DNA of 64,000 nt from an uncultured Treponemataceae bacterium (GCA_964482955.1 CAYZZW010000004.1:5653-69652), one strand, 5' to 3'. Shown: positions 20,161-64,000, numbered from the stretch's first letter. Program-made: numbers and translations. Notes: generated from the sequence alone by a model not told the origin.

Positions 20161-20166
20161 GGCGTC

Positions 20167-42589: not shown

Positions 42590-42626
42590 GAGAGGGGAAC
42601 CTTTCGGCTTGAAAGGTTCCCCTCTC
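42590..42626 (-). terminator. Strong 16-bp hairpin between the FecR-like gene and the 1166-aa gene
   Basis: GAGAGGGGAACCTTTC-ggctt-GAAAGGTTCCCCTCTC has a perfect 16-bp stem and no U-tract. It lies 29 nt after the FecR-like stop codon. Confidence 0.45.
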
Positions 42627-42654
42627 GTTCGGGGTCACGCGCGGGGAAAGGGGA

Positions 42655-43608
42655 TCACAGGTAGCCGTCGAGGGAGATGCCCGCGGCTTTCAGGATGGCC
42701 AGGTAGGTCAGGCGGAATTCGTAGTCGGCGTACGCGGCCGCGCGCGCCATGGTCCGGTCGAACTCGGTGGCGTTCGCGCCGACGCGGGTCTTCGCCTCGT
42801 CCTCGACGTACGCGACGTCGTCGGCCGTGCGGACCACGAAGCCCGTGCCCCAGGACCGCTCGCTGCCGTCCTCGAGGACGAAGGTGAAGCGGACGATGTA
42901 GGGCTCGCCGGCCTCGTACGCGAAGCTCCGGAACTCGAAGCGCCAGGCCCCGTCGCGCTTCTCGAGCTCCACGGCCTTCGTCGAGCGCGGCTCCATCGCG
43001 GCGTCGAGGAGCTCGGCCTTGACGGCCTTCGGCGCGACGTCCTTTTCGAAGCGGTAGCGGAGCGGGTCGAGGGCGTAGGTCTCGTTCGAGGGGGCGTCCG
43101 CGCCGAAGACGATCGCGAGTCCCCGGTCGATGTCGGCCGCCACGAGGCCGCCGAGGTTGCCGTAGTTCTTCGGCACGCCGTAATCCTCGGTGGGGACGCG
43201 GATGAACCAGTCGAGGACCTTTTCGCCGCCCTTCGTGCCGCGGGTGCCGCTCGTGAGCGGCTGGCCGCCGATGCCGGCCAGGATGCGGTCGGTCTGGTCG
43301 CGCGGGAGCGGCTTCACGCTCGCGGCGGTGAAGGTGACCGGGAAGCGGGTGAAGGTCACGAGGCCTTCCGCCGCCATGTAGATCTGGACCATGCCCGCCT
43401 TCGAGCCGGCGGCGAGCGCGAGCACCGAATTCTTGTAGAGCAGCGTGCCCGGCGCGGCGCCGAGGTCGGCGATGCCCTGCTGCTTGACGATGACGCCCGG
43501 CTTCGCCGACATGACGATGCCGACCGGCTCGGTCTGCGCCGCGAGGCTGCCGACCGTCACCAGGGCCGCGACGAGGGCGGCGGCGAGCGTGTTCGCGTTC
43601 CGTTTCAT
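42655..43608 (-). CDS. Secreted FecR-like domain protein
   Basis: 317 aa with the signal peptide MKRNANTLAAALVAALVTVGSLAAQ. The N-terminal ~90 aa (GIVMSAKPGVIVKQQG...LLYKNSVLALAAGSKAGMVQIYM...GLVTFTRF) resemble the FecR beta-sandwich pattern. The ATG overlaps the CHASE2 gene stop codon (ATGA). Confidence 0.45.
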   Translation of the reverse strand: MKRNANTLAAALVAALVTVGSLAAQTEPVGIVMSAKPGVIVKQQGIADLGAAPGTLLYKNSVLALAAGSKAGMVQIYMAAEGLVTFTRFPVTFTAASVKPLPRDQTDRILAGIGGQPLTSGTRGTKGGEKVLDWFIRVPTEDYGVPKNYGNLGGLVAADIDRGLAIVFGADAPSNETYALDPLRYRFEKDVAPKAVKAELLDAAMEPRSTKAVELEKRDGAWRFEFRSFAYEAGEPYIVRFTFVLEDGSERSWGTGFVVRTADDVAYVEDEAKTRVGANATEFDRTMARAAAYADYEFRLTYLAILKAAGISLDGYL

Positions 43609-45896: not shown

Positions 45897-45923
45897 GGGG
45901 ACGCCGCCTTTCCGTCGCCGGGA

Positions 45924-45951
45924 AGTATAGCAAGTTAGCCGAAAGCGTCAA
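45924..45951 (-). promoter_or_regulatory. Candidate sigma-70-type promoter of the CHASE2 operon
   Basis: The reverse strand reads TTGACG (45951-45946)-N16-TATACT (45929-45924), ~28 nt upstream of ATG 45896. Confidence 0.5.
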
Positions 45952-46002
45952 GTTTCGCGTCCGCCGAGGTCGCCCCGCCGCCATCGCCGCGGGCCGCCGC
46001 GC

Positions 46003-46030
46003 TTGCGTTTTCGGGCGCATCGCTTATGCT
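46003..46030 (+). promoter_or_regulatory. Candidate sigma-70-type promoter of the eight-gene cluster
   Basis: TTGCGT (46003-46008)-N16-TATGCT (46025-46030), 63 nt upstream of ATG 46093. Confidence 0.4.
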
Positions 46031-46092
46031 GGAAACCGGGCGGGGATCCGGTCGCCCGCCCCCGATCCCGACCCGAGAGGAAGCGTCCGACC

Positions 46093-47529
46093 ATGGAAAA
46101 ATTCGCCAACGACACCTTCATCGTCCCGAACGACGGGCGGATCGACGACATTCCGGCCGGCTTCGAGCCGCGCGCCTTCGGGCTCCAGTTCATCCCGTTG
46201 CTCCGGGTCCGGATCAACCGCGTCGACACGCTCCTCATGAAGCCCGGCGGGGCGGGCTGGTCGGGCTACAACGTCGAAAGCGTCCGCGTGCCCGTCCCCG
46301 CGGGGCGCGACGCCTTCCTCGCCGCCCGCGACGCGGCGCTCGCCGCCCTCCGGTCCGGCCCGGGCTGGGACGCGGCGCTCGATCGGGCGCTCGCCGCCGC
46401 GCTGCCAGGCTCGGGCTTTTCGATACGCCGGCTCCTCGACGACCTCCTCCGCGACTTCGGCATGGACGCCGCGCGCGCGGGGAACGCCGTGCGCCTCGAG
46501 CCGTTTTCCGAGCCGCCGCACGTCCTCTATTCGGCGTGGGACGACGCCGCCGGGGTCCCGACGCTCTACGCGGCGGTCTTCCTCAAGCTGGTCGTCGAAA
46601 CCGACGACGACTCCTTCCTCGAGTACCGCAACCTCGAGTACGTGCCGATCGGCTTCTTTTCGCCGGCGCTGCGCTTGCACCCGCGCTACGCCCTCCACAC
46701 GGCCGTGATCGCCCTGTTCCGGAAATACGGACTGCCCGTCGCCGGCTCCGTCTGCGACGAGATTCCGGTCCACGTCTGGAACATGCGCCGCCGCCAGGCC
46801 GACGCGATCACCTTCGCGTGCGATCTTTCCTATTATTACGACAACGTAGGCGATCCCCAGCTCTTCGAGCGCGGTTTCTTCCCGCCCAATCCGGAAAGCC
46901 GGGAAGAGCGCTTCCTCGCCGACCTGCGCGCCCTCGTCGACGAAGGCTTGCGCCCGGACCTGTTCGGGCCGCGCGCGCTCGCCCTGCTCGACGGCTACGC
47001 CATCGAGGCGCTCGTGCGGAGCGGCATGTTTTTCCGCTCGTACTCGCCGGGCATGTTCGCGGGCATCGTGGAGACGTCCGATCTGGACGACGGCGAAGGC
47101 CGCAGTTCGCTGTCGCCGTTCCACGCCTTCGCCGACCTCGCGCGGTTTTTCCGCCGCGTTCGCGTCGTCATCGACCGCAAGCGCATCGACGCGGTCGGGC
47201 CGCTCTACGACGATCCCGAGCGCTGGTTCAACCTCCGCCGGGACATCGTCCCCTTCGACGCCGAGCGCGAGCTGGCGCGGGCCGGCTCCTTGCTCGAGCG
47301 CGCGCCGGTGCCCGCGGCCTCCGGGGCCGCCGACACGGGCTTCAGGCGATACGGACTCGTCCTCACGGAGGCGGCCGCCTCGTATGTCGACCTTTCGGGG
47401 ATCCTGACCGGCGAGGACGGGCGCCCGGCGACCGCCGTCGAGCCCGGATCGCTCTACGTCGCGAGCCGCGACGACGCGCTCTATTGCTACCGCGCGGGCG
47501 GCGAGACGTTTATATGGAGGAAAGCATGA
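46093..47529 (+). CDS. Cytoplasmic hypothetical protein (cluster gene 1)
   Basis: Track ORF 46003-47529; the preferred start is ATG 46093, after GAGAGGAAG. The 478-aa product has no signal peptide or TM. I recognise no motif. Confidence 0.6.
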   Translation: MEKFANDTFIVPNDGRIDDIPAGFEPRAFGLQFIPLLRVRINRVDTLLMKPGGAGWSGYNVESVRVPVPAGRDAFLAARDAALAALRSGPGWDAALDRALAAALPGSGFSIRRLLDDLLRDFGMDAARAGNAVRLEPFSEPPHVLYSAWDDAAGVPTLYAAVFLKLVVETDDDSFLEYRNLEYVPIGFFSPALRLHPRYALHTAVIALFRKYGLPVAGSVCDEIPVHVWNMRRRQADAITFACDLSYYYDNVGDPQLFERGFFPPNPESREERFLADLRALVDEGLRPDLFGPRALALLDGYAIEALVRSGMFFRSYSPGMFAGIVETSDLDDGEGRSSLSPFHAFADLARFFRRVRVVIDRKRIDAVGPLYDDPERWFNLRRDIVPFDAERELARAGSLLERAPVPAASGAADTGFRRYGLVLTEAAASYVDLSGILTGEDGRPATAVEPGSLYVASRDDALYCYRAGGETFIWRKA

Positions 47530-49358
47530 ACCGAATCGCGAAAGCCGCGGCGCTCGCCGCGATGGTCCTCGTCGCGGTCGCGACGGTGTCCGCGCAAAAA
47601 CCGGTGGAGCTCGGGTACGACGCGTTCGCGAAGCTGCTGGCCGGCCAACCGACGCCGCTCTCCGCGCTCATGCGGCCGAAAGGTTCCTACGAGATCGTCG
47701 GCAGCAAGGAATTCTACGACCTCCCGAACAACGTCATCCTCCGCGAGGACTGCATCCAGCTGCCCGAAGAGCAGGTGAAGTACCTCGAGGAGTACAAGAA
47801 GCACCTCGGCAAGGCCATGGGCACGGTGATCGAGTTCCTCTTCGACAAGGACGTGACGGACCGCTTCGACGATTCCTTCTATTACGCCTATACCTTCCAG
47901 GAACCCTCGCAGGGTAAGCTCAGGCTCAACGCCGATTACGCCGCGCTCGTCATGGCGCAGCGGCATTTCCCCCGCGCGATCGAATTCACCTTCTGGCCGT
48001 GGACGGACCAGGGCAAGGTGAACGGCCTCTACATCGACTCGGGGCCGAGCCAGGGCGGGATCATCCAGCTGTCGCTCTTCGACACCTTCCAGCAGGACGC
48101 GGTTCTGAAGGCCGTGAAGGCGCAGGATCCGGGCTGGAAGTACGCCGATCCGTATTCCTCGGTTTTCGGCGCGATGCAGAAGGCCGGCGTGGCGGAGCGC
48201 ATGCCGATCGTGCAGGTCTTCCTCCACGAGGGCACGCACGCGGTGCTCCAGTTCTCCCGGGGGCAGGGTTTCGAGGAGAACGACCGCAGGCTTTTCGAGG
48301 GCGTGACCGAGTTGCTCGCGCTCCGCGCCGCGCACTGGTTCTCCGCCGGCTACGAGGACTTCATCGACGTCTTCGCGTACCCGGGCGGCGTCTTCATGGC
48401 GTCGCTGCTCTTTTCGATCGATCCCCAGGGACTGCTCGAGTGGTACACGCGCGGCAAGCCGAACGCCGACGCCGCGTTCGCCGAGAGCATGGCGGCGAAG
48501 CTGTCGGCCATCCGCGACGTGCGGGGCGGCACGCCCGCCCTCGACCCGACGCGCGCCGCCGCGTTCAAGGAGGCGTTCAAGATCGCGTACCTGGACGGCG
48601 CGGCGCTCAAGCGCGAGCAGTACTGCGCGCCCTTCGCCGACTACTGCGACCTCAAGATCCTCTGGGACTGGATCCGGGAGAACGGCACCTACTTCAACCA
48701 GATGCCGCTCAAGCTCCGGCTCTTCGTCGTTTCCAACTTCTTCGGCCTCGACGCCTTCCGCGTCGGTCCCGATCCCAAGCGCTTCGAGCAGCAGGTGCGC
48801 GACGCGCTCTCCAAGGCCGAGCGCAAGAACTGGAACAACACCGTGGAGAAGGAGATCGAGGGGCTCGTGCGCGATCCGGGCGGCGAGACGACGGACGCGA
48901 GTCCCCTCGGCATCATGGTGTCCCAGCCGAAGAAGGACGCGAGCGAAGAGGAGAAGATGGAGGGCGCGAAGGAATCCAAGGTGCTCGACTCCAACTCGGG
49001 CGTTTCGGGCGGGCCCGAGGAAGAGCGGTGGAAGAAGGAGAAGGTCAAGACGTTCGTCCCCGACCAGGCCGAACAGCCGCGCTCCTCGTTCCCGCCGGTG
49101 GACAAGTGGTTCGCCGAGTACTGGAAGAAGAACGGGAAGCCGGCCGACGCGGAATACGGCAAGCGGCGCGACGCCCTCGTCGCCGTGTTCACGCTGACCG
49201 GGGTCGACCAGATCACCGATTTCGTGATCGCCTCGAAGCTGTCGAAGCAGGCGGCGCTCGAGTGGCTGGCCTTCCTCGACACCTACATCGCGCCGAACCT
49301 GAGCAAGGGCAAGGACTCGCTCCGCATCCCGCAGGTCCGCATGAAGACCGTGTACTGA
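47526..49358 (+). CDS. Secreted putative zinc metallopeptidase, gluzincin-like HExxH...E (cluster gene 2)
   Basis: This is the tail of shadow ORF 46026-49358. ATG 47526 overlaps the gene 1 stop codon (ATGA). The signal peptide is MNRIAKAAALAAMVLVAVATVSAQ. The motif VFLHEGTHAV places HEGTH at 48225-48239. A Glu in LFEGVTELLA lies 20 residues after the second His (codon 48297-48299). Confidence 0.6.
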   Translation: MNRIAKAAALAAMVLVAVATVSAQKPVELGYDAFAKLLAGQPTPLSALMRPKGSYEIVGSKEFYDLPNNVILREDCIQLPEEQVKYLEEYKKHLGKAMGTVIEFLFDKDVTDRFDDSFYYAYTFQEPSQGKLRLNADYAALVMAQRHFPRAIEFTFWPWTDQGKVNGLYIDSGPSQGGIIQLSLFDTFQQDAVLKAVKAQDPGWKYADPYSSVFGAMQKAGVAERMPIVQVFLHEGTHAVLQFSRGQGFEENDRRLFEGVTELLALRAAHWFSAGYEDFIDVFAYPGGVFMASLLFSIDPQGLLEWYTRGKPNADAAFAESMAAKLSAIRDVRGGTPALDPTRAAAFKEAFKIAYLDGAALKREQYCAPFADYCDLKILWDWIRENGTYFNQMPLKLRLFVVSNFFGLDAFRVGPDPKRFEQQVRDALSKAERKNWNNTVEKEIEGLVRDPGGETTDASPLGIMVSQPKKDASEEEKMEGAKESKVLDSNSGVSGGPEEERWKKEKVKTFVPDQAEQPRSSFPPVDKWFAEYWKKNGKPADAEYGKRRDALVAVFTLTGVDQITDFVIASKLSKQAALEWLAFLDTYIAPNLSKGKDSLRIPQVRMKTVY

Positions 49359-49371
49359 ACGGAGCCGCCCG

Positions 49372-51648
49372 GTGTTTCAGGCCATGTCCAAGATCCGCGC
49401 GGCGCTCGCCGCTGCCTGCCTCCTCGCCGCGTCGCCCGCGTTTCCGCAGGGCGGCGCCGCGCCGGGCGACGCGTACTCGCGCCTGTCCGAGCGCTTCGTG
49501 TCCGAGCTCGGCGATCCGGCGCGCCTCAAGGCGTACGCGCTCCGTCCGGCGCCGGACACGAACGGGCTGTCGGTCGACGAGCTTATGCTCCATTTTTCCG
49601 AGGGCGCGTCCGACCTCGACGCCCTGGGTGAACAGTACGCCTCCGTCCTCGAACGGATCGACGCGGGCATGGCGGAGGCGGACGCGAAGGCCGCGTGCGG
49701 CTTCGAGCTCCTGTCGCTCTCGCTCGTCTTCGAGGAGTTCAAGAAGTCGCCGGCCCTGGTTTCGGGGATTCTCCCGGCGGGAGGACTCCCGGGGCTCGCG
49801 CTGTTCGCGGAAAAGCCGGCGGTGGACCGCTTCGTCGCCGCAGCGCGCGCGTTCGGCGCTGAGGCGGACAAGCGCTTTTCCGGCCGGCAGCCGGACATCG
49901 CCGCGTTCGTCGCCTCGTACCGCGCCAAGGAAAAACTGTCCTACGACGACCGCAAGGCCCTGATCGGGCTCATGAGCTTTTCGCGCGAGGCGGTGAAGCG
50001 CCACTTCGACCGCGCGCTCGACGCGAAGGACGCCGTGGGCAAGGTCCGCGCCTTCCTCAAGATCTACGGCGAATACCTCTCGTTCTCCGCTCAGCCCGCC
50101 GAAGAGGAGTTCGCCGGCCTTCTCTCGGCGCTCTTCGACCGGCGGATCGCGGGCACGCTCGCGCTCTCGGAGGCGGACGTGAAGGCGGCGCTCGCCGTCG
50201 CGTCGGCCTCGCTTTCCGCGGAGAACAAGTACCGGGCGTGGGTGCTGTCGGACAAGGCCGCCTGGGCCGACGCCGCGGCAGCGGCCGTCAAGGGCGCCGC
50301 GCCGCTCAAGGCCTTCTACCAGAAGCTCGACGCCGATTCGCTCAACGCGCTCGTCGCCGCCGATTTCGAGGGCGCCGCCGCGTTCGCCGCCGCCGCCCTG
50401 GACCAGCTCAAGCGCTCGGGTTCGGCGAAGGCAGGCGAGCTCCTCGCCGGCTTGCGCGCGGAAACCGGCTATGCGCTCGCCGCCGCGGACGGCCGACTCG
50501 GCGCTCCCGCGGTCAGGGATCTGGTCGCGCTTCTCGACAAGGCGCCGGCCCCGGCGGGCGGCGTCAATCCGTACCCGCTCCTCCGGAAACTCTACGACCG
50601 GCTCGATCCGGACGCAACCAAGGCGGCGCGTTACGCGATCCAGTCGTATCCCGGGTATTTCGCGCTCGTTTTCCTCCGCGACCGCGCCGCGGCCCTGCCC
50701 GAGACCGCCCTGCCGGCGGACAAGGCGACGCTCGCGCCCGCGCTCGCCGCCCTCGCGGCCAGGACGGCGGCCCTCGTCGACTCGGCGCGCCCGTCCTCGG
50801 TCCAGCCCTTCGACGGCGGCGAACCGGGCTTCCTGTTCGCGAACGCCGTCGCGCACGGGCCGGTCGCCCCCGAGTTCGCGAAAGCCTGCGATTCGATCTT
50901 CGCGCTCAGGCGGAAACGCGCGCCCGAGCGCCGCGATTTCTACCTGCCCTTCGCGGTCTTCGCCGCCTCCGATCCGGCGCACGAAACGCTCGACTACCTC
51001 CGGGGCGGGCTCCCGTCGCGCTCGCTCGGCCGCCTCTTCATGGAAACCGGCCGCTTCGACGAGGTCGTCGCCGTGCTCGCCCTCGACGACGCGGGCGTCC
51101 TCGTCGCGGCCGACCTGCCGCTCCAGGTGCTCCAGTACCGCATGGCCCTGTCGGGACGGGACGCGTCCGCGCTGGTCCGCCTCGGGTCGCGCAACGCGGA
51201 GCTCAAGGCGCGCATGGATTCGGTGAGCGAATACCTGACCGCCGCGCGGGCGGCCGATTCCGGATTCCGGCCGCCGGCGAAGGAGCTGCTCGCCTACATC
51301 GCGGCGATGCGCGGGGCCGAGGGTGACCTCGCGGCGCCCGCCGTGAACGCCGCGAACGCCGAAGCCGTGCTCGACCTGGCCGCCGCGGTCGTCGTCCTCT
51401 GGGACGCGTCGATACCGCGCGGACGCGGGGCGCCGGTGACGGGATCGTACGCGTACAGGCTCGTGGAAGTCGTCGTCGACTGGGTGGACTCGGGCGCCAA
51501 GGGCGCGGACGCCGACGCGCGCGACGCCCTCGAGGCCTTCGCCGACTGGGAGTACAAAGGCGTCCTCACGAAGGAGCGGTTCGGGGAGGCGCGCAAGAAC
51601 GCCGTCGATCTCGTCCAGCTCGTGGACGCGATCGGATTGGGACTCTGA
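49372..51648 (+). CDS. Secreted Ala-rich helical hypothetical protein (cluster gene 3)
   Basis: 758-aa ORF. GTG 49372 lies seven nt after GGAG (49361-49364). The signal-like N-terminus is MFQAMSKIRAALAAACLLAASPAFPQG. I recognise no motif. Confidence 0.6.
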   Translation: MFQAMSKIRAALAAACLLAASPAFPQGGAAPGDAYSRLSERFVSELGDPARLKAYALRPAPDTNGLSVDELMLHFSEGASDLDALGEQYASVLERIDAGMAEADAKAACGFELLSLSLVFEEFKKSPALVSGILPAGGLPGLALFAEKPAVDRFVAAARAFGAEADKRFSGRQPDIAAFVASYRAKEKLSYDDRKALIGLMSFSREAVKRHFDRALDAKDAVGKVRAFLKIYGEYLSFSAQPAEEEFAGLLSALFDRRIAGTLALSEADVKAALAVASASLSAENKYRAWVLSDKAAWADAAAAAVKGAAPLKAFYQKLDADSLNALVAADFEGAAAFAAAALDQLKRSGSAKAGELLAGLRAETGYALAAADGRLGAPAVRDLVALLDKAPAPAGGVNPYPLLRKLYDRLDPDATKAARYAIQSYPGYFALVFLRDRAAALPETALPADKATLAPALAALAARTAALVDSARPSSVQPFDGGEPGFLFANAVAHGPVAPEFAKACDSIFALRRKRAPERRDFYLPFAVFAASDPAHETLDYLRGGLPSRSLGRLFMETGRFDEVVAVLALDDAGVLVAADLPLQVLQYRMALSGRDASALVRLGSRNAELKARMDSVSEYLTAARAADSGFRPPAKELLAYIAAMRGAEGDLAAPAVNAANAEAVLDLAAAVVVLWDASIPRGRGAPVTGSYAYRLVEVVVDWVDSGAKGADADARDALEAFADWEYKGVLTKERFGEARKNAVDLVQLVDAIGLGL

Positions 51649-54600
51649 TGGGCGGACCGTCCGCGCGGCGCGGAAAGGCCGCGCTCACGTGCCTCGTCGC
51701 CGCGGCGTTCGTCGTCGCGGTCGCGGCGGCGGCCGAAGGGATCGACCTCGCGCAGTTCGCCAAGGCCGTCGCGAAAATCAACGACTACATAGTCTCCGGC
51801 GACGGCGTCGACGAAACCTGGTTCAAGCGCGTCGTGAAGCACCTGCCGGAAACCGACTCGGGCGCCGAGCTCGAAACCGTCGAAGGCTATCCCGCGTTTC
51901 GCGACGCGTTCGCGAAGGGGCACGCCTCGCTCAAGCTGAATCGCGAGCTCCGCTTCGCCGTCCTCGTCAAGCTGGGCGACGGCGCCGGAGTCACGACCCT
52001 GCTCGACGGGGCCGAATTCCCCGACTTCCGCGAAGTCCTCTCGCTCATGGCCCGGATCGACGCGATGCGCGGCGGCCCCGGCGTGCCCTGCGACGGCGTG
52101 CCGGTGACGGTCGGCCGCGACCGCCGCTACCTGGTCGCCGACGCGTTGCGCGCCTCTTCTTCCTTCGCGGAACGGATCGGTCTCTCCGGCAAGGACATGG
52201 CCGCGGCCATGGAAAACTACACGGAGCTCGAAACCTACTTCTCCGGCTGGCCGGGCTGGGAGGAGCTGCGCGATTTCCTCGTCCGCGGCAAGGACATCGG
52301 CATCGCCATCGAAAACCCGATCTCGCCGGAGACCCTCGCGGCGTGGCTGTCGGACAAGCCGGTAGCCCTCTCGACGTTCCGCGAGCTCCAGCCCCTCGCG
52401 CCGAAGATCGAGACGCCCGAGCCCCTGTACGCGTGGCTGTCGGCGTTCGGATCCACGCGCTACGGCGCCGACGGAACGCTGCTCTCCAAGGGGGCCTTCG
52501 CCTCGCGCGCGTGCTTCGAGGAGCTCGCCTCGGTCGGCGCGGCGCTTTCGAGACTGTTCGCGGACTCGGGCAGCGGGCGCGGCGGCTCGCGGCCGAAAAA
52601 GCGGCACGATCCGGCCGTTCTCCGCGCCCGCCTCGACGCGGGGATGGAAGCTCGCCTGGCCGGCCCTCCGACTGGCGCCCCGACCGCGCCGCCCGAGTCG
52701 GGAACCGTTTCGGCGAACGCCGATTTTTCCGCCGGCGCGGCGCTCGAACTGCGCCTGGCGCTCGGCGACGAAGTCGACGGCTTCGTGTCGCGCAACGCGT
52801 CGCGTCTCGTGGGCGCGGCGCTCTTTCCCGACGCGGGTCCGAGCGCCCTGCAGGACGAGCTCGACGCGCTCCTCCGCCGTCCCGAAATCGTGAAGCTCCT
52901 TCTCGCGCAGCTCTCGCGCGGCCTGTACCCGCCCGCGCAACGCACCCTCTACCGGCGCTTTTTCGAGGGCGTCGTCGGCTCGTGGGACGGCAAGGCTCCC
53001 GCCCGGGGCGACGCGGGCTTCGTCGCGCCCGGGGAACCCGCGACCACCGTCGGAGCGCAGTTCCTCGCGTTCTTCCTCTCGTACCACCGCGACGTCGAGA
53101 CGACCGCGTTCGTCAGGTATTCCGATGCGCTGTGGCGCGCCTTCGACTTCGGGCCGGACGGCGCGAAGCTCGAGGCGTTCGCCGCCTTCCTCGCCGACAC
53201 GGCCGAACGGCTCGAGCTGTCGGGTTTCATGACGGACGAGGCGCTCGCGTTCCTCGCGGAGCGGATCTTCCGCGGCCCCTGGGAGGACGGGTCCGCGGGG
53301 GCGCGCCTCTTCCTCCATCTCGTGGAAAACCGCTACGTGAAGCCGGACGTCCCCGCGTCCGAAAAGAACCGCATCCTCACGAAGACCGTCCCCGCGCTCG
53401 AGGCGATCCGCGACGCGAACGCCCGGGACGCCTTCGGGCCGTTCCGCGAATTCTACGCCGGGTACGCCGCGCGCCTGGCGGAGCGCGTCGCCGCGCCGGA
53501 CTTCGACGCGTGGTCGGATTTCCGGACGCGGGCCGCGCTCTGCGAACTGGCCCCGGCTTTCGCGAACGCGAACCCGGGCGTCGTGCCCGCGTCCGTCGGC
53601 TGGGCGCTCGGCCGCTACCGCCTGTTCGATCCCTTCGTCGCGGAGCGGAAGCTCGAGGAGGAGACGGTCGAAAAGGAATTCTTCGGCGAACGCCGCCACG
53701 CGCCGCCCGCGGGCCTCGACTACCGCTTCCTGTCCGACGGGACGACCGCGGCGCCTCCGGACCGCGACGACAAGGCCGAAGAGACCCTGGCGCTCGTCGC
53801 GAAAGGGGCGCTCAGGCGGATTTCCGCGTTGCGCGATCCCGTCGCGTCGAGGAGCTGCATGGAAGCGACGGTGTCCGTGATGCGGGCGGTGCCCGGCGGC
53901 GAGGGCGGCATCGAGACGCTCGTGGGCGGCCAGAAGCCCAAGCTCCTCGCGCGCCGCGCCTTCGAGTATGCGATGATCCTCCTCGGCGGCGAACAGGGCT
54001 ACGACCCGGAGGAGTTCGCCGCGGGCAGCGAGGAAGAGGTCGTCGGGAAACTCTCGCGCCTCCTCGGCGTCGCGGTGGCCATCGACGGCAAGCCCGTCGC
54101 GGCGCGCATGAAGGAACTGCGCGACCAGGCGGCCGCCCTGCCCGCGGGGGAATCGGAAGCCCGGGCGACGTGCGTCCGCGACTTCGTCGGGCTCGTGGCC
54201 GGGCTCGAGGACTTCATGTACAAGCTGGCGACGCCCGAGCTGGCCGCCTCGATCCGCGAAACCGCGCTCATCCTCGACGACGCGGGCGCGTACGCCGCCG
54301 TGGTCAAGGCGCTCGTCAAGATCGTCTACTACCATCCGGATCCGCGCGTATCCACGCTCGTGGCCGCGGAATTCGTGAAGCTGTTCGGCGGGGCGGGGGC
54401 CATCCCCCCGGAGCTCTACGGCGATTACGCGCGCATCTGCTTCTTCTCGTTCCGCGACGACCGGAAGCTCCTGGCAGACGCCTTCGACAACCTGTACCGC
54501 CGCTACCGCGAATCGCCCGAGCGCGGCGGGCACTACGTGGAGGCCATGCTCGTCTTCGCCGACGATCCGCGCATGCGCGAGGGCATCGCGAAGGTACTCG

Positions 54601-57395: not shown

Positions 57396-58879
57396 ACGGC
57401 GCGCCGGTCTACTTCGTCCTGAACGCCCTCGTCGCCGCGCTGGCCTGCCTGGTCCTCGGCGGCGTCTTCCCGCGAAGCGGCGTCGGCGAGCCCGAGGCCG
57501 TCGCGGCCGCGCTCGCGGTCTACGCCTTCGCGTCCTTCGTCTCGTCGCGCTTCCGAAAGCCGCTCCACGGCTACCTCCCGCCGCGCTTCGAGGCCGCGGG
57601 CGCCGCGCCGCGCCGCGCCTTCGACCTCCGGCACTTCGCGTGCAATTTCCACGCCCCGCTCGTCGTCTCGGTCGCCGGGCTCTTCGCCTTCATGAACGTG
57701 ATGGCGAGCCCCACGATGGAGGTGTACCCGATCGTGCGCGGGCAGATCCTCGTGATCGCCAAGACGAACCACAAGATGGCCGACAACCGCGGCTATCCCT
57801 TCGCGGACCAGGCGGGCTCCGACCTGCTCCTCCACACCGTGATCGGCCTCAAGGAGTCGGTGTCGGACATCGCGTCGAAGACCGCGTCCAAGTTCGTGAA
57901 GGAGAAGAAGGCCGCGCGCTGGAAGGAAATCCTCGAGGCGCTCCGGAAGTTCTCGCTCCGCGATCTCCTTTCGAGCGTCGTCACCCGCGTGCGCTGGAGC
58001 GGCAAGCCGCCCATCCTGCTCTACGGCATCCGCGTCGTGAACTACACGGGCAGCCCGCTGCCGGCGTCGATGGTGCGCTCCGGCGTGTCGTTCGAGAGTT
58101 ACCGCCTGCCGCCATACGTCGGCCGTGTCGTCACCCTGCGCGACGGTCTCGAGGAGGACGACACGCGCCTGCTCGAGCTGCCGCGCGACTGGTCGCGCTT
58201 CGGGTCGATGCCGGACAGCTACAATTTCCTCCGGAGTTTCTACGCGCTCGGCCTGTACCGCGACGCCTTCCCGAAGGATTCGTTCGATTACGCGCGCTTG
58301 GCGGACGGCTTCGCCGAGCCGTCGACGCGTCCCGTGCTCGTGTGGTTTTCCGACGACTGCTACGAACCCGACCGGCTCGAGCGCTATCCGGACTACCCGG
58401 GCTTCCGCGACCCGGCCGATCCGACCCTGCGGAGCGAGGGCGCGGTCGAGAACGCGCTCTTCGGCCGCTTCTTCGGCAAGCGGCTCTTCATCCAGATGAC
58501 GGGACTCCAGCAATACGAAAACGCGGAAGTGCGCGGAAAGACCATTCGCACGAACCTCGGCGTCGAGCGCTACTTCTCGGCGGCGGAGCGCGTCGAGCTG
58601 CCCGCCATCCGCTTCGCCGACCCGGCCGTCGGGCGCAAGGACCTCAAGAAGGCGGTGGACGCCCTGCACGAAGGCCTCGAACCCTTCGTGGAGTCGCTGC
58701 TCGCGGAAGGGCTCGGCATCGACCTCGTCTCGGCCCCCGCGGACGCCCTTTCGCGCGTCGAGCGGGAAGGGCTCATCTTCCGCTACGACGAGATCGCGGC
58801 GATCGTCATGGCGCCCTTCGCGCTCTGGGTGACGATCATGATTTTGCGGACGCTCGCGTACCGCAAGGTGGAGGGTTAG
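57392..58879 (+). CDS. Polytopic membrane hypothetical protein (cluster gene 5)
   Basis: This is the tail of ORF 56738-58879. ATG 57392 overlaps the gene 4 stop codon (ATGA). The 495-aa product has three N-terminal hydrophobic segments and one C-terminal segment (IAAIVMAPFALWVTIMILRTLAY), flanking a ~330-aa soluble domain. Confidence 0.6.
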   Translation: MNGAPVYFVLNALVAALACLVLGGVFPRSGVGEPEAVAAALAVYAFASFVSSRFRKPLHGYLPPRFEAAGAAPRRAFDLRHFACNFHAPLVVSVAGLFAFMNVMASPTMEVYPIVRGQILVIAKTNHKMADNRGYPFADQAGSDLLLHTVIGLKESVSDIASKTASKFVKEKKAARWKEILEALRKFSLRDLLSSVVTRVRWSGKPPILLYGIRVVNYTGSPLPASMVRSGVSFESYRLPPYVGRVVTLRDGLEEDDTRLLELPRDWSRFGSMPDSYNFLRSFYALGLYRDAFPKDSFDYARLADGFAEPSTRPVLVWFSDDCYEPDRLERYPDYPGFRDPADPTLRSEGAVENALFGRFFGKRLFIQMTGLQQYENAEVRGKTIRTNLGVERYFSAAERVELPAIRFADPAVGRKDLKKAVDALHEGLEPFVESLLAEGLGIDLVSAPADALSRVEREGLIFRYDEIAAIVMAPFALWVTIMILRTLAYRKVEG

Positions 58880-58883
58880 GCCG

Positions 58884-59903
58884 ATGACGCCGCTCCGCGC
58901 CGCGATCGTCACGTACGCCGCCTCGGCGATCGCCATCCTGTGCGCCCTGGTCGTCGCCTGGGTCGCGGGGGCGTCGCGGGCCAGGGCGCTCGCCGCGTCC
59001 GGGGGCGCGGGACTCAGGCTCCGCGCCCGCCAGACCTGGACGCGCTTCGTCCTCGTCGCCCTCCTTCCGCTCGCGGGCTTTTCGTACTTCTTCTTCCCGA
59101 CCCGCACGCTCTCGAAGAAGAATCCCGAGCTGGACGACCGCCGGCCCATCCTCGTCGTGAACGTGGACGCGAACTGGTACATGGGACTCGCGCTGTCGCA
59201 GAATCCTTCGATGGCGGCCAACGTACGGCGGATCGTCGCGCGGCTCGCGGCCACCGGGGCGGACATGAAGCTCGTCGCCTTTTCGATGAACGAAGTCCGC
59301 TCGTCGAGTTCCTTCTATTATAAAAGCGGCAAGCGCGAGGCGCCGGACTCGCTCGCGGGGCGCTACTTCGGCGCCGCGGCCGCGAGCCAGGCGTACAAGA
59401 ACGTGCGCGACAGCCTCTTCACGGCCGCCTTCTACTACCGCCTGGTCGGATCGGCCTTCGGCGAAGTGGACGGGCTCGTGTCCATCCTCGACAAGATCGA
59501 GGAAGTCCGCGCGTACAAGACCGGCGAACGGAAGACCGTGAAGGCTGACGTCTTCGTCGTCACGCTCTCGAAGCGCAACATGAACGTGCGCACCTGCCTC
59601 GACGGCGCCGAAAACGTCCCGCGGAGCGAGGAGCCGAGACGGCTCGCGACGGGCAACCGGTATTCCACGTACGTGCTCTTCGAGGATTCGGGGGCGCTGT
59701 CGGCTTCGGAAGCCGCGCGCCTCGACCGCTTCGTCGAGAGCGTGCTCAAGGCCGAGAACAAGCCGGACTTGTCCAAGATGGAAATCAATTTCGGGCTCGA
59801 CCGCTCGGAGACCGCGATGGCGGGCTGGGCGCTCATAGCCGGGCTTCTAGCCGCGCTCGTGGCGCAGGCGTGGTTCGATTCGATCAAGATCAGGATAGCG
59901 TAA
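58884..59903 (+). CDS. Membrane protein, possible BatA-like vWA fold with degenerate MIDAS (cluster gene 6)
   Basis: 339 aa, starting 4 nt after the gene 5 stop codon. There are two N-terminal TM segments and one C-terminal TM. The sequence ILVVNVDANWYM occupies the position of the vWA DxSxS strand. MKLVAFSMNE and ADVFVVTLSKRN sit where later vWA strands would be. The vWA assignment is by eye only. Confidence 0.5.
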   Translation: MTPLRAAIVTYAASAIAILCALVVAWVAGASRARALAASGGAGLRLRARQTWTRFVLVALLPLAGFSYFFFPTRTLSKKNPELDDRRPILVVNVDANWYMGLALSQNPSMAANVRRIVARLAATGADMKLVAFSMNEVRSSSSFYYKSGKREAPDSLAGRYFGAAAASQAYKNVRDSLFTAAFYYRLVGSAFGEVDGLVSILDKIEEVRAYKTGERKTVKADVFVVTLSKRNMNVRTCLDGAENVPRSEEPRRLATGNRYSTYVLFEDSGALSASEAARLDRFVESVLKAENKPDLSKMEINFGLDRSETAMAGWALIAGLLAALVAQAWFDSIKIRIA

Positions 59904-59920
59904 GGCGCGGGGAGGATCGC

Positions 59921-62900
59921 ATGCTGAAGGGATTCACGATGGAGCTGGTCACGGCGGAAGCCGCGTTTTCGCGGCGCTACGCGAAAACCGCCTCGAGGGA
60001 GATCCGCAGGGCCGAGCGGGCGCTCCACGCGCTGCTTGCGCCGCTCGCGCGGAAGGCCAAGGGCGAAGCGGTGCGCACGCCGCTCAAGTACCGTCCGGGC
60101 GGAAAGCCGACCCTCGCGCTGCGCGGCGGCCCGCTCGCGCGCGCTCTCTCGCTGTCGGTCGGCGACGACGGCTTCGTCTCGCTCTCCCGCGCGGCGGCAG
60201 GCGCCCGGCGCGAGGACGCGGACGTGCTCCGCTTCGTCTTCCTGTCCGATTACGAAGGCGATGCGGCGAACCAGGCGCCCGCGCTCCGCCTCAGGCGCAT
60301 CAAGATCGCGCTGTTCATCGCCCTCGCGGACGCGGTGCTCGAAGAAAAGGGCGGCCCCGACGACGAGGACAACGTCGCCGTGCGGTGCATGATGGACGCG
60401 CTCTACTACCGCGCCTACGAATCCGACGACGGCCTCCTGGCCGAGCCCTCGGGCATCCGGCGCGCCGCCGCGAAGTTCTTCTACCGCTTCAACACCGCGC
60501 ACTCGGCGCTCCGCGCCGCCTACTCGGACAACCTCGCGCGCCTGGCGGGGCGCATGCGCACCGAGGAGGATTTCCTCGAGGCGTGGGCGGGGTGCGCGCT
60601 CTTCTCGCTCAACCTGAAGCGCCAGAAGGCGCAGGACGTCGAGGCGTTCGTGCGGAAGGCCGTCGCGTACGAGGAGGGCGATCCCGAGGCCGACCGCGAA
60701 CTGCGCGCGCGGTCGTCGGGCATAAGCGCGTTCATGGAATCGAACCTGGCCTCCGCCTTCGCCTCCACCATCGTGGCCGACCTCAAGGCCGCCATGGCGA
60801 CCACGAGCGGCGAGGCGTATCGCCTCTACGAGCGGACGCTCTTCCTGTTCGAGCGGAAGTCCTACGAGGACATCTTCGGCGTCTTCCGCCGCATGATCGA
60901 CTCGGGCTACCTTTCCTCGTCGCGCGATTACTTCCTCTTCTACCGCGTGTTCGCGTTCTCCCGCTTCGAAGCCGGTTACCCGCGCCCCGGGCGCGCCTCG
61001 GTCACGGACGCCGAGCGCGCGGCCACGCTCAACCGCTTCACCTACGTCTCGTCCTTCATGAACCGCCTCGTCGTGGCGGAGGACGCCTTCCGCGGCGGGC
61101 GCGGCCGGGGGCGGCGAACGCTCCGCTCGCGGCTCGGCTCGTTCGCCGCGTTCGGCCTGGCGCTGTACGCGGTCGGCCTCGCGCTCTCGCTCGTCGCCGC
61201 GCTCGCGCTCGGGAAGCGCGACCCCGACCTGCTCGCGCAGACCGTGCCGTGGCTCGGGAAGGGCGTGGACGCGCTCGTCCGGTCCATCCTGGCGCTCGAC
61301 GGGGCCAAGGCGGGCGCGCTCGGCTGGGCGCTCGCGGTCGGCGCGGTCCTCTTCCTCGGCTACCTCGCGTACTGGATCGCCGGCACCGCCGCCCGCGCCC
61401 TCGGCCGCGGCGTCTCGAAGCTGCGCTCGCGCAACCTGCTCTTCTTCGTCGGCGTCAACGCGCTCTCGTTCCTCGTCGTCTTCGGCTTCGCCTCGGAACT
61501 CGTCCACTGGTCGCGCGAGCCCTTCGTGCGCGAGCCCATCCTCTACGTCACCAACGCGGAATCGGTGGAGAACACGCGGCCCGATCCCTTCATGGAGAAC
61601 TTCATCCTCGACAAGGGGCTCGCGTCGCGCTATAGGCTCGTCCGCGCGTCGGTCGCCCGGCTCAACGCGGACGTCGCTTCCCGGAAGGGCGATCCGGCCG
61701 CGCTCGACGCGTTCCTCTCCGGCTTCGACGCCTACGCGAAGATCCTCTTCGCCGTGGCGCCGAACCGGCCCGGCATCGACGACTACCGGCCCGAGGTGTT
61801 CGAGTACGATCCCTTCCTCGTCGAGCTCGTCCGCCGCTGGAAGGCGTCCGGCGCGGCGCGGGACCTCGACCTCGTGTTCATGTATCCCTTCCGCTACGCG
61901 CGGCCCGCAGCCTTCGAGGGCTTTCCCGCCCTCGAGCGGATGACGGTGGTCGGCTGCGTCGACGAACGCGGCCCCCTCGGCCTCGGCTACCTGCCCGACC
62001 GTCTGACCCTGCCCGGCGGCAGGAAGACCGACGCGAAGCTCTTCTTCCTGCCCGACGAGACGACCGGCAAGCAGATCCTCGAGCAGATCAAGGGACTCCG
62101 TCGCGCGCAGGACATGAAGGTCGAACAGCTCCGCAGCATGAACGTCGAGTACTACTACGACTTTTCGCCGAAGGAGACGGCCGCGGGTCAGGAGGGCGAT
62201 CCGGAACGCGACGCCCTCTTTTCGCCGCTCAACGTCGTGGCGTATCCGGTGGCGGATCCCGTCCGCGCCGGATCGTGCAACGCGTTCGTCTACGTCCTCC
62301 CGGGTGGTGGCGCGGCGCGAGCGGGCATCGCCAATGCCGGCCGCTTCGGCGTGCTCGCGCTCGACCAGGCGTACCTCACGATGGATTCCGACCTCGACGC
62401 CTTCCTCGAAGAGGACTTTTTCGCGGCGCGGAAGCCCAAGGCGGAAGATCCCGTCGACCGGGGCGCCTTCGTCGCGACGCGCGTCGCGTTCGCGGTCGTC
62501 GCCTTCGCGCTCTTCGCCCTCCTCTCGTCCACCACGGCGCGGCAACGCCTTCTCATGGCGCTCGCGGGCGCCGTGGCGCTCTTGCCGGCGGCGCTTTCGC
62601 TCGTCGCCACGAACGGCCAGCCCTTCCCCGGCGCGAGCCTCCCGCCCTGGTTCTTCGCGGGCTGGGACGGCACGCTCGCGATCGGCGCGATGGCCCTCGC
62701 GACGCTCTACTACCTGGCGCAGGTGATCGGCCTTTCGAAGAACGCGCAGTGCCTCGTCTACGCGTGGAGCCTCGCGGCCGTGTCCGTCGGAACCGCGGTG
62801 GCCGGCTGGTTCGCGGTCGTCGACGCGCGCGCCCTGCGCGACTTCCTTTCGTCCGCGCCGGGGCTCGGGCTCTCGCTCGGCCTCGCGGCCGCGACGGCGG

Positions 62901-62944
62901 CGTTGTCGTGGGCGTTCTTCACGTTCCGGCTCAGGGCGAAATAG
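59921..62944 (+). CDS. Large polytopic membrane hypothetical protein (cluster gene 7)
   Basis: Track ORF 59870-62944; the preferred start is ATG 59921, four nt after GGAGGA. The 1007-aa product has a ~430-aa cytoplasmic N-domain, then three TM segments, then a ~350-aa loop domain. Four to five C-terminal TM segments follow. Confidence 0.6.
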   Translation: MLKGFTMELVTAEAAFSRRYAKTASREIRRAERALHALLAPLARKAKGEAVRTPLKYRPGGKPTLALRGGPLARALSLSVGDDGFVSLSRAAAGARREDADVLRFVFLSDYEGDAANQAPALRLRRIKIALFIALADAVLEEKGGPDDEDNVAVRCMMDALYYRAYESDDGLLAEPSGIRRAAAKFFYRFNTAHSALRAAYSDNLARLAGRMRTEEDFLEAWAGCALFSLNLKRQKAQDVEAFVRKAVAYEEGDPEADRELRARSSGISAFMESNLASAFASTIVADLKAAMATTSGEAYRLYERTLFLFERKSYEDIFGVFRRMIDSGYLSSSRDYFLFYRVFAFSRFEAGYPRPGRASVTDAERAATLNRFTYVSSFMNRLVVAEDAFRGGRGRGRRTLRSRLGSFAAFGLALYAVGLALSLVAALALGKRDPDLLAQTVPWLGKGVDALVRSILALDGAKAGALGWALAVGAVLFLGYLAYWIAGTAARALGRGVSKLRSRNLLFFVGVNALSFLVVFGFASELVHWSREPFVREPILYVTNAESVENTRPDPFMENFILDKGLASRYRLVRASVARLNADVASRKGDPAALDAFLSGFDAYAKILFAVAPNRPGIDDYRPEVFEYDPFLVELVRRWKASGAARDLDLVFMYPFRYARPAAFEGFPALERMTVVGCVDERGPLGLGYLPDRLTLPGGRKTDAKLFFLPDETTGKQILEQIKGLRRAQDMKVEQLRSMNVEYYYDFSPKETAAGQEGDPERDALFSPLNVVAYPVADPVRAGSCNAFVYVLPGGGAARAGIANAGRFGVLALDQAYLTMDSDLDAFLEEDFFAARKPKAEDPVDRGAFVATRVAFAVVAFALFALLSSTTARQRLLMALAGAVALLPAALSLVATNGQPFPGASLPPWFFAGWDGTLAIGAMALATLYYLAQVIGLSKNAQCLVYAWSLAAVSVGTAVAGWFAVVDARALRDFLSSAPGLGLSLGLAAATAALSWAFFTFRLRAK

Positions 62945-62953
62945 GGGGACGGC

Positions 62954-64000
62954 ATGACCAGGCTCAAGGAATGCGGCGCGCAGATGGTGGCGCTGGCCGA
63001 CGAGATCGGCAAGGAACTCTTCAACGTCGAGGACACCATCAAGATGGCCGTCCTCACGATCTTCGCGTCGCCCGACGGGCGCTATTCGCACTTCCTCCTC
63101 GAGGCGCCGCCGGGCATGGGCAAGACGGTGCTCTGCAAGACGATCGCGCGATTCTGCAACCTCACCTTCAAGCGCATCCAGCTGACGCCCGACATGCAGC
63201 CCGGCGAGATCGTGATGACGCAGGAACTCGAGATGCAGGAAGGCGGCATGCGCACGAAGCAGGTCTTCGGCCCCGTCTTCACGAACATCCTGCTCGCGGA
63301 CGAGATCAACCGCACGCCGCCGCGCACGCAGTCGTCCATCCTCCAGCCCATGGCCGAGTGCGAGACGACCTACGGCGGCAAGACCTATTACCTCGGCCAC
63401 GAGATGGGCGAACTCGACGCCCTCCGCGGCGACGCGTACAACGAGCGCATCCGGGAACTCTACGAGACCGGCCCGTGGACGAAGCCCGCGCCCTCCGCGC
63501 TCTTCTACGTGTTCGCGACGCAGAACCCGATCGAGAACGAGGGCACCTACCGCCTGCCCGAGGCGCAGCTCGACCGCTTCCTCTTCAAGATGGACCTCGA
63601 CTATCCGGAAGAATCGACCGTCCGCGAGATCCTCAAGCGCAAGGCGGCCGTCGGGCAGTACCTACGCTCGTACTACGAGGCGATGGCGAAGGAATCGGCC
63701 GCGGTCAAGGGCGTCGAGGCCCTGGTCCCGGGCCTGCCGAATCTCGACGACGCGCTCGCGAAGGCGCAGACCGCCTTCATCGCCGAACTCGAACCGCGTC
63801 TTTCTCGGATGTACGACCTGGATCTCCGCGACGAACGCGACGCCGCCTGCGTGCGCGACGAGACGAAGAAGCTCGTCTTCGAAAAGCGGGACTTCCTCAA
63901 GAAGCTCGAGCGGAAGGGCACGCTCGACCCTGCGAAGGTGATCGACATCAGGCGGAGCATGGCGCTCGGCGTCGGCGTGGGAAGCCCGCTCTACTACGAG
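62954..64000 (+). CDS. MoxR-family AAA+ ATPase (cluster gene 8), 3' end outside the window
   Basis: The gene is not in the ORF track because it runs off the right edge. ATG 62954 lies 9 nt after the gene 7 stop codon, preceded by AGGGGGA. Walker A is LLEAPPGMGKT and Walker B is ILLADEINRTPP. The sensor is VFATQNPIE and the Arg-finger region is YRLPEAQLDRFLFK. The frame is open for 349 codons to the window end. Confidence 0.85.
   Translation, partial: MTRLKECGAQMVALADEIGKELFNVEDTIKMAVLTIFASPDGRYSHFLLEAPPGMGKTVLCKTIARFCNLTFKRIQLTPDMQPGEIVMTQELEMQEGGMRTKQVFGPVFTNILLADEINRTPPRTQSSILQPMAECETTYGGKTYYLGHEMGELDALRGDAYNERIRELYETGPWTKPAPSALFYVFATQNPIENEGTYRLPEAQLDRFLFKMDLDYPEESTVREILKRKAAVGQYLRSYYEAMAKESAAVKGVEALVPGLPNLDDALAKAQTAFIAELEPRLSRMYDLDLRDERDAACVRDETKKLVFEKRDFLKKLERKGTLDPAKVIDIRRSMALGVGVGSPLYYE

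Follow-up and report, generated by a model that had tools for sequence, protein, structure and literature searches.

The DNA considered here is a stretch of 64,000 nucleotides (nt) from an uncultured Treponemataceae bacterium (GCA_964482955.1 CAYZZW010000004.1:5653-69652), referred to below as the window. Its last part, from position 46093 to position 64000, is taken up by eight genes on the plus strand (g1 to g8), and a ninth, g9, follows just outside the window. In this nine-gene cluster, a MoxR-type AAA+ ATPase and its vWA-fold partner come after seven genes, most of which encode proteins without a recognizable family. The first gene of the conserved unit, g1 (46093-47529), encodes a predicted cytoplasmic protein of 478 amino acids (aa) from an orphan family. 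Three genes for predicted secreted or periplasmic proteins come next: g2 (47526-49358; 610 aa), which carries a gluzincin-type zinc-peptidase motif, g3 (49372-51648; 758 aa, Ala-rich), and the giant g4 (51648-57395; 1915 aa), the last two being again from orphan families. They are followed by three genes for predicted inner-membrane proteins. The product of g5 (57392-58879; 495 aa) has about four predicted transmembrane helices, three of them N-terminal and one C-terminal. That of g6 (58884-59903; 339 aa) is BatA/BB0173-like, with two transmembrane helices, a vWA-like periplasmic domain, and a last transmembrane helix, and has a degenerate MIDAS (an adhesion site that depends on a metal ion). 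That of g7 (59921-62944; 1007 aa) is polytopic and belongs to an orphan family. Finally, g8 (62954-64000) encodes the ATPase and is cut by the window end. An exact look-up of g7 retrieved identical contigs, among them L002, which shows the full 458-aa MoxR and, at 7074-8042, the gene g9 for a predicted cytoplasmic protein of 322 aa with a DUF58-like vWA fold.

These genes are packed without room for much else. The junctions from g1 to g8 measure, in order, -4 (ATGA), +13, -1 (TGATG), -4 (ATGA), +4, +17, and +9 nt, and only 7 nt separate g8 from g9 on L002. Directly after g9 the strand flips, to a convergent gene for a canonical vWA protein and then one for a beta-CASP RNase. The GC content of the window ranges from 0.62 to 0.72, and long spurious open reading frames (ORFs) are plentiful in it. 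The reading frames of g1-g8 are nevertheless supported by the GC at their third codon positions, which reaches 0.88-0.93; g1-g7 translate free of stops, and g8 is an ATPase truncated at the window end. An earlier note on this DNA had listed the eight genes with their lengths and start codons, had described their junctions as gap-free or overlapping, and had assigned a compartment to the first seven products. The coordinates matched on recheck and the recomputed junctions had the same values. A hydropathy scan agreed with the compartments proposed for g1-g7: no hydrophobic segment was found in g1, signal-like N-terminal segments were found in g2, g3, and g4 (and also in their orthologues), and g5, g6, and g7 were polytopic.

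The sole sizeable non-coding gap before the gene string is the divergent intergenic region upstream of g1 (45897-46092; 196 nt), which is presumed to harbor the operon promoter. The candidate promoter that had been put forward at 46003-46030 (TTGCGT-16-TATGCT) did not survive closer inspection, since it matches at only 8 of 12 positions, which is under the scan threshold and no better than chance. The single sigma-70-like site returned by the promoter scan lies on the minus strand at 45951-45924 (TTGACG-16-TATACT, matching at 10 of 12 positions, with an upstream TG) and faces u1, the divergent gene on the other side of the gap. Terminator-like sites are not in excess (13, against 13.7 expected from shuffled sequences) and none was located at a g1-g8 junction, which speaks for one functional unit.

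The cluster was recovered from several other lineages, all of them represented by one or more contigs: a 'Spirochaetes bacterium' metagenome-assembled genome (MAG) from Lake Pavin sediment (L006/L003), a second lineage (L007/L014/L020), a third (L010/L016/L017), a 'Spirochaetales bacterium' MAG (L013/L018), and L019, whereas L002 is identical to the window. All nine genes, in unchanged order and nearly identical in size, are found in the window genome, L006, L020/L014, and L017/L010, and the same order is seen on the partial contigs of L019 (g3-g9) and L018/L013 (g4-g9). Gene order is thus kept in five further lineages, partial contigs included. The products measure, from g1 to g9, 494/619/758/1819/501/346/1006/482/323 aa in L007/L014/L020 and 491+/611/751/1791/512/342/1010/478/321 aa in L010/L016/L017, where g1 is partial in L017. 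The Lake Pavin cluster is collinear with that of the window at 55-78% identity, and identity falls to 21-47% (g1-g7 and g9), against 57-60% for MoxR, in the more distant lineages. Junctions in the orthologous loci are mostly overlapping or a few nt wide; in four lineages the start of g9 lies -4 to +7 nt from the stop codon of MoxR, as against +42 nt in L019. The GC content of the locus varies from 0.38 to 0.69 across lineages and tracks that of the host. By contrast, the flanking genes differ between lineages on both sides, as exemplified by L020, in which DUF362/Fer4, HAD, and glycogen synthase genes lie upstream and a GH1 glycosidase gene downstream. Given the conserved order and sizes, the variable flanks, and the host-tracking GC, g1-g9 constitute a conserved functional unit with sharp boundaries: a real, tightly packed nine-gene operon. 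Its distribution is limited to about eight lineages at 50% identity, those with a submitter's label being Spirochaetota, and the submitter names seen for its proteins are all 'hypothetical protein'.

This comparison bears out the earlier view of the synteny of the eight genes, namely a co-conserved, translationally coupled module rather than a chance neighborhood. It also corrects that view at the distal end. The cluster had been described as ending with MoxR, and g9 now extends it by one gene. The alternative that MoxR opens a Bat-like operon running out of the window was right insofar as a DUF58/vWA-fold partner lies directly after it, but one gene is all that follows, and the MoxR-DUF58 pair is the tail of operon g1-g9, not the head of another.

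The assignment of the last window gene to the MoxR ATPases stands, with Pfam AAA_3 matching the window part of g8 at E 5.5e-43 and the full-length protein at E 1.3e-42, in the latter case together with AAA_lid_2 (E 3e-5). The Walker A, Walker B, sensor 1, and Arg finger motifs are intact (GMGKT, LLADEINR, ATQNP, and LDRF). Relative to ordinary MoxR proteins, g8 and its orthologues (window 62954-64000; L002 5690-7066) carry four insertions: one of about 5 aa precedes Walker A, one of about 45 aa follows TTYGGKTY.LG, one of about 100 aa separates the ATPase core from the lid, and one of about 15 aa is situated in the lid. They also share a conserved C-terminal tail of the NDPRFSGIE type. A search with MoxR, the best conserved of the nine proteins, revealed this long-MoxR clade and yielded only six clusters of it at 90% identity, with 47-100% identity to g8, after which the score dropped from 369 to ~170 bits, the level of generic MoxR proteins. 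The contigs that hold the clade members hold the same g1-g9-type genes. Judged from its sequence, g8 is a MoxR of a new, cluster-specific clade with four insertions. One candidate for a distant member, P0009 (Planctomycetales ZRK34), was rejected: it proved to be a tandem MoxR in an ordinary DUF4159/DUF58/BatA/GATase1-like cluster. Separately, L006 encodes a second MoxR directly after g9 (~23640-24593, plus strand), of ordinary length (~318 aa) and 36% identical to g8, which suggests that a canonical MoxR locus lies beside the expanded one in this lineage.

The earlier note had raised the question of whether a DUF58 or vWA gene follows MoxR, and g9 has features of both. Its AlphaFold2 model, built from an alignment of six sequences from five lineages, has a predicted local distance difference test score (pLDDT) of 75 and a predicted TM-score (pTM) of 0.77, with residues 98-318 modeled confidently. 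The top Foldseek matches in the PDB are vWA domains, those of Rpn10 (E 5e-4, probability 1.0), Ku70/80, Rea1-MIDAS, and INTS14, with further vWA-type matches to integrin I, LapA vWFA, and Ro60; the Rea1 MIDAS domain is an AAA+-docking domain. The Pfam family DUF58 (PF01882) is matched by the g9 orthologue of L019 (24.8 bits against a gathering cutoff of 23.4, E 1.4e-5) and, below threshold, by those of L018 (E 0.029) and L014 (E 0.069). In a weak hhalign match to a DUF58 protein from a planctomycete (E 0.05), the signature of that family coincides with the best-conserved part of g9, NLVFGTNRS...EKW.PGKP...N.RAT...F.DDR.L...D.S.A. The MIDAS position reads ENSEA, DRSDA, DASDA, DRGAP, and DYGAE in the five lineages; it is partly kept, is not conserved, and departs from DxSxS. 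On its model, g9 is a vWA-fold, DUF58-like partner of MoxR, the kinship with DUF58 running by sequence through an orthologue. Considering this fold, the DUF58 match in an orthologue, and the place of the gene after moxR, g8-g9 would therefore correspond to a classical MoxR-DUF58 pair. Residues 38-97 of g9 (L002 7185-7364) are the most conserved stretch and yet the sole part of the model with a pLDDT below 50. This segment may take on an ordered structure only upon binding MoxR or a partner in the membrane.

Another link to known MoxR systems is provided by g6. In its 339 aa, the hydropathy scan places transmembrane segments at 6-24, 55-73, and 311-329, which nearly superimpose on those of BB0173 from Borrelia (7-25, 57-77, and 310-328), whose VWFA domain spans residues 87-328 with the MIDAS at 99-103 (PMC5700661). 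BB0173, a BatA-domain protein adjoining MoxR and DUF58, has a vWA domain whose periplasmic location was established by experiment (PMC5700661). Both the size of g6 (~340 aa) and its topology, with two transmembrane helices, a periplasmic domain, and a third helix, follow the BatA-type pattern. In a model built from four lineages, the two transmembrane helices are followed by elements in the vWA-like order beta-alpha-beta-beta-alpha-alpha-beta-alpha-beta-alpha, and then by the last transmembrane helix. The Foldseek list is dominated at its top by vWA or I domains (INTS13, ANTXR2, factor B, vWF A1, CLCA1, MIC2, and p44). Overall, g6 resembles BatA and BB0173, with a periplasmic domain that is weakly modeled as vWA-like. 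The structure predictions and Foldseek searches suggested earlier were run on g6 and g9; they gave a vWA fold for g9 and a vWA-like one only weakly for g6 (pTM of 0.77 and 0.54, respectively).

The HExxH motif pointed out in g2 is present and invariant in four lineages. It reads H234-E235-x-x-H238 and is followed, 20 residues after H238, by E258 in the context 'FEG', so that the whole motif, HExxH-x19-E, is kept at 40% identity, within the most conserved block of the protein. All four orthologues have a signal-like N-terminus. An HExxH motif with a Glu 20 residues further on in an 'EG' context is the spacing of gluzincins, such as thermolysin and M1-type enzymes. No peptidase family model matched g2 even at E<=10, nor did any PDB sequence. 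This protein is thus best described as a putative Zn-peptidase of gluzincin type, on the strength of its motif.

As for g1-g7 as a whole, the profile hidden Markov model searches proposed in the earlier note gave AAA_3 for g8 and nothing for the seven genes before it: Pfam, NCBIfam, and PADLOC returned no match at E<=0.1, and NCBIfam returned only noise on 24 orthologues. This orphan status is not organism-wide, since most other window genes scanned were readily assigned to Pfam families with confidence (alpha-2-macroglobulin/PBP1c, PBP2, signal peptidase, LysM-M23, sigma-70, Liv transport, and HutH). Sequence and profile searches of the PDB with g2, g4, g5, g6, g7, and g9 found nothing below E 0.3. 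Two sub-threshold Pfam matches, Wzy_C in the g6 orthologue of L014 and MFS_1 in the g5 orthologue of L018, fall on transmembrane helices, occur in a single member each, and were judged spurious. The statement that none of the seven upstream products can be assigned therefore needs to be softened for g6, which is BatA/BB0173-like, and for g2, with its gluzincin-type motif. It stands for g1, g3, g4, g5, and g7, for which no family, PDB-sequence, or profile-profile link was obtained, mutual comparison included.

Each of these five orphans has its own conserved features. Orthologues of g1 were found in L006 (67% identity), L020 (33%), and L017 (partial), and share the invariant block VGP.Y.DP.RWFNL.RD..PFD. 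The length of g3 hardly varies (758/768/758/751 aa) at 21-56% identity between lineages. A word-indexed search of 5.8 billion clusters with g4 retrieved only itself and one 63% relative, which belongs to the Lake Pavin MAG; proteins of 1819, 1791, and 1893 aa, 21-28% identical to it, occupy the same position in other lineages. No match to g4 was found in the PDB, and a metagenome scan with the g4 alignment gave no confirmed relative. A search with the concatenated four-lineage alignment returned two g4 proteins only, the word index evidently crowding out the shorter components. In g5, a domain of ~360 aa lies between transmembrane helices and would be periplasmic when the sequence is read by the positive-inside rule. 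The four-lineage alignment of g5 contains the invariant blocks EEYP..RG.IL...K.N.K, RVR..GKPP..LY, PDS.NF, and W.SDD.YEP, and neither a family nor a PDB match was obtained. The layout of g7 comprises a cytoplasmic N-terminal domain of ~400 aa, three transmembrane helices, a periplasmic domain of ~325 aa, and a C-terminal bundle of ~5 transmembrane helices; the hydropathy scan flags five of these segments, the remainder and the sidedness being read from the sequence with the same rule. When 1.84 billion representatives were searched exhaustively with a HMMER profile of g7, eight proteins came back, all with E<1e-100 and no remote tail. The genomic contexts of these relatives that were examined are clusters of the g1-g9 type, one of them new (L019, g3-g9). 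No Pfam or PDB match was found for g7.

On balance, g1-g9 probably represents a strongly expanded and divergent member of the MoxR-DUF58-vWA class (Bat-like, with an MRP-type MoxR) that is found in few Spirochaetota lineages. The earlier claim of an undescribed system can be retained in the sense that most of the products have no family, but the cluster belongs with the MoxR-DUF58-vWA kind as an expanded variant. The description 'trans-envelope' is not supported: the predictions yield cytoplasmic proteins, inner-membrane proteins, and proteins with a signal peptide, but no component of the outer membrane was identified. A C-terminal aromatic beta-signal looked for by eye in g2 and g4 was not conserved between lineages. 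With no outer-membrane element found, 'inner-membrane/periplasmic' is the safer term.

A working model for such a system can be proposed. In it, g5, g6, and g7 would form an inner-membrane platform, each contributing, by its predicted topology, a large periplasmic domain between transmembrane helices, of which only that of g6 is modeled as vWA-like. The putative Zn-peptidase g2, together with g3 and g4, could assemble on this platform in the periplasm. On the cytoplasmic side, a g8 MoxR hexamer would act with the vWA-fold adaptor g9. In the NorQD-cNOR system, a MoxR hexamer works with one VWA partner that plugs its pore, the MIDAS face being on the membrane-protein target (PMC9976466), and MoxR/VWA couples in which the VWA protein plugs the hexamer pore and brings the motor to its target have likewise been described (PMC13036017). 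If NorQ/NorD and similar MoxR/VWA couples are taken as the analogy, g9 might plug the ATPase ring and dock on the cytoplasmic face of the platform, the candidate docking site being the ~400-aa N-terminal domain of g7, perhaps with g1. ATP hydrolysis by g8 would then drive the assembly, maturation, or remodeling of a periplasmic complex that includes g2-g4. We thus infer, from this analogy, that g8-g9 acts from the cytoplasm on a g5-g6-g7 platform.

Several observations weigh against a Bat-like assignment. Of the nine proteins, no more than two or three connect the cluster with the Bat/MoxR-vWA kind, no BatD or TPR/BatC/BatE equivalent is recognizable within g1-g9, and moxR-DUF58 comes last, the reverse of canonical operons, in which it comes first. 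The AlphaFold2 model of g6 is of low confidence (pLDDT 61.9, pTM 0.54) and its Foldseek matches are weak (E 0.01-0.3, best 0.011, with TM-scores of 0.2-0.4). The MIDAS loop after beta1 of g6 is an invariant D95-A-N97-x-Y99 (D-A-N-W-Y in the window) instead of DxSxS, and neither the window copy nor its four orthologues match the BatA N-terminal domain (PF07584) or a VWA model in Pfam or NCBIfam. In hhalign, g6 aligned with a planctomycete BatA-VWA protein at E 0.12. Pfam DUF58 gave no match for g9 of the window genome or for the L006 and L010 copies. The idea that g5, g6, g7, and g9 are paralogues, all degenerate vWA proteins, found no support at the level of sequence, hhalign giving no match among them with 2-sequence and then with 4-6-sequence profiles. 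Finally, the carriers are known only from metagenomic assemblies.

The same evidence can be read in another way. The cluster could be a new kind of machine, serving a periplasmic or surface structure, or the secretion or anchoring of the 1,915-aa protein, in which MoxR-DUF58 is a recruited generic chaperone and the Bat likeness is superficial. This would account for the lack of detectable relatives of g1, g3, g4, g5, and g7 (in the exhaustive profile search for g7 and the word-indexed search for g4), for the lack of any detected Bat-specific family (BatA N-domain, BatD, TPR), for a MoxR clade of its own with four insertions, and for a giant secreted protein and a putative protease without Bat counterpart. 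However, the parts that can be read, g8, g9, and g6, make up the very triad by which MoxR-DUF58-vWA membrane systems are defined; neither a secretion ATPase nor a secretin, an outer-membrane barrel, or a sortase-like element was found; and the orphan status may reflect fast divergence within a small clade. We regard a new machine of this kind as rather unlikely. A related proposal, which we keep as a tentative possibility, is that g1-g5 and g7 make up an undescribed inner-membrane-anchored, AAA+-powered machine that builds or maintains a periplasmic structure around the ~1,900-aa protein, with MoxR-DUF58 as its co-opted motor. Such a machine, limited to a small clade of free-living Spirochaetota, would stand as a functional class of its own, a new one, rather than as a homologue of Bat. 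The choice between a new machine and an expanded Bat-like system comes down mainly to the eventual folds of the orphan proteins.

Two further explanations fare worse. MoxR-vWA modules are the cores of described NTP-dependent conflict systems (PMC7159879), and a defense role, in which the effector would be either the secreted peptidase or the giant g4, would sit well with flanks that vary between lineages, with the CHAT, TIR, and WD40 genes adjoining the L010 cluster, and with a patchy, rare distribution. Nevertheless, PADLOC finds nothing, the cluster itself encodes neither a beta-propeller nor a nuclease, TIR, or other effector domain, and membrane or periplasmic proteins account for six of its nine products. 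In addition, the CHAT and TIR neighbors are confined to one lineage, and the host-adapted composition and identical gene order at 21-47% identity fit long vertical residence better than a mobile island. A conflict system is thus very improbable. A chance neighborhood or a set of mis-called ORFs, which might be suspected given the many long spurious ORFs of GC-rich DNA, can hardly be entertained at all: it is already refuted by the order kept in five further lineages, by the third-position GC of the called frames, and by orthologues of the same length for every protein in genomes with 38-66% GC. An expanded member of the MoxR-DUF58-vWA class remains our preferred reading.

A variable second gene set is present near the cluster in two or three lineages (window 39010-45896, minus strand; L002 8099-9322, minus strand; L010 12505-19251, plus strand). 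It comprises u1, for a protein of 763 aa with a transmembrane helix, a periplasmic domain, three transmembrane helices, a cytoplasmic domain, and no Pfam match; u2, for a secreted protein of 317 aa; u3, for a protein of 1166 aa with TPR_9; and the gene for a canonical signal-peptide vWA protein with a DVSTSM MIDAS and a C-terminal transmembrane helix. In the window genome, u1-u3 lie divergently upstream of g1, and the vWA gene is convergent downstream of g9. In L010, genes for vWA (37% identity), TPR-CHAT, u2-like (E 2e-4), and u1-like (E 8e-21) proteins follow g9 co-directionally. TPR and canonical vWA genes are found beside the cluster in these two lineages only. This second set (u1-u3 and vWA) could be an accessory module of Bat-like type, or else a neighbor with no relation to the cluster; u1 and u2 were rejected as part of the unit, as L020 lacks them and has other genes before g1. 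Downstream of the L010 cluster (13883-21437, plus strand), TPR-CHAT, TIR (ThsB-like), and WD40 genes have the look of a conflict island, in that lineage alone. Elsewhere in the window, the gene for a bacterial alpha-2-macroglobulin of ~1,970 aa (MG2, A2M_BRD, A2M, bMG10) is followed by that for a PBP1c-type bifunctional penicillin-binding protein (2967-11191, plus strand), a known conserved pair. A protein of 1,410 aa (27053-31285, plus strand) combines several Ig-like repeats of FlgD_ig/CHU_C type with a C-terminal OmpA domain. ORFs of 424 aa (25664-26938, plus strand) and 210 aa (36253-36885, minus strand) have a coding-type third-position GC and no Pfam match.

MoxR-DUF58-vWA ('Bat') loci are widespread, and we know of no mechanism or client established for them. 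Among the versions found, g1-g9 is the most elaborate. According to the predicted features of its products, it would connect the cytoplasmic ATPase and its adaptor with three proteins of the inner membrane and three of the periplasm, a likely protease among the latter. Because the genes are tightly coupled and strictly co-conserved, the parts can be listed explicitly and the g5-g6-g7 platform can be named as candidate client of the MoxR motor, and co-folding and reconstitution experiments are therefore well defined. Nine proteins that were 'hypothetical' wherever they had been named are now given either a family or an explicit orphan status, and a new MoxR clade is defined. The value of these results is limited by uncultured organisms and a very narrow distribution.

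In a Bat (Bacteroides aerotolerance) operon, moxR, a DUF58 gene, BatA/BatB (vWA), BatC/BatE (TPR, SH3), and BatD are found at one locus. Of these, g1-g9 contains no more than MoxR, a DUF58-like protein, and a single BatA-like protein. The likeness to the Bat clusters of Borrelia (bb0170-bb0176) and Leptospira (bat) nonetheless extends from the MoxR gene beside that of a DUF58 or DUF58-like protein to the ~340-aa protein with two transmembrane helices, a periplasmic domain (vWA in BB0173, weakly modeled as vWA-like in g6), and a third helix, to the extra signal-peptide proteins, to the spirochaete hosts, and to the periplasmic complex that has been proposed (PMC5700661, PMC3557215). By contrast, no Pfam BatA, VWA, BatD, or TPR match was obtained in g1-g7, and the MIDAS of g6 is lost. 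Moreover, moxR-DUF58 is distal here and proximal in Bat clusters, the g8 clade has four insertions, and six extra orphan families are present, including the 1,915-aa periplasmic protein, the 1,007-aa polytopic protein, and the putative Zn-peptidase. The Leptospira bat genes also appear to be independently transcribed, whereas the junctions of g1-g9 overlap. Their deletion produced no phenotype in the Leptospira study, which ended on the verdict that 'Bat function remains elusive' (PMC3557215).

The MRP-type MoxR operons, such as mycobacterial moxR1 and bifidobacterial PFNA, also have adjacent MoxR and DUF58 genes with one or more membrane proteins, the role of DUF58 being unknown there as well (PMC12067865). 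These operons consist of three to five genes with recognizable vWA or transglutaminase partners (moxR-DUF58-membrane vWA or transglutaminase), whereas seven genes lie upstream here, none of which is recognizable by sequence, and no transglutaminase or kinase is found. With the MoxR-vWA-beta-propeller ternary conflict systems, g1-g9 shares the MoxR and vWA core (PMC7159879), but it lacks the beta-propeller and cytoplasmic effector or sensor domains and encodes mostly envelope proteins. Pfam bpMoxR scores only 16.8-17.9 bits on g8, against a cutoff of 27. As to g2, its HExxH and the Glu 20 residues downstream, invariant in orthologues, liken it to the gluzincins (clan MA(E)), but its sequence matched neither a model of any peptidase family nor a solved structure. 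Finally, the adaptors of NorQ/NorD, RavA/ViaA, and CbbQ/CbbO have a functional DxSxS-T-D MIDAS and a defined enzyme client, in contrast to g9, whose MIDAS is only partly kept. These couples nevertheless share with g8-g9 the combination of a MoxR hexamer with a vWA adaptor encoded by the neighboring gene, and their target can be a membrane protein (PMC9976466).

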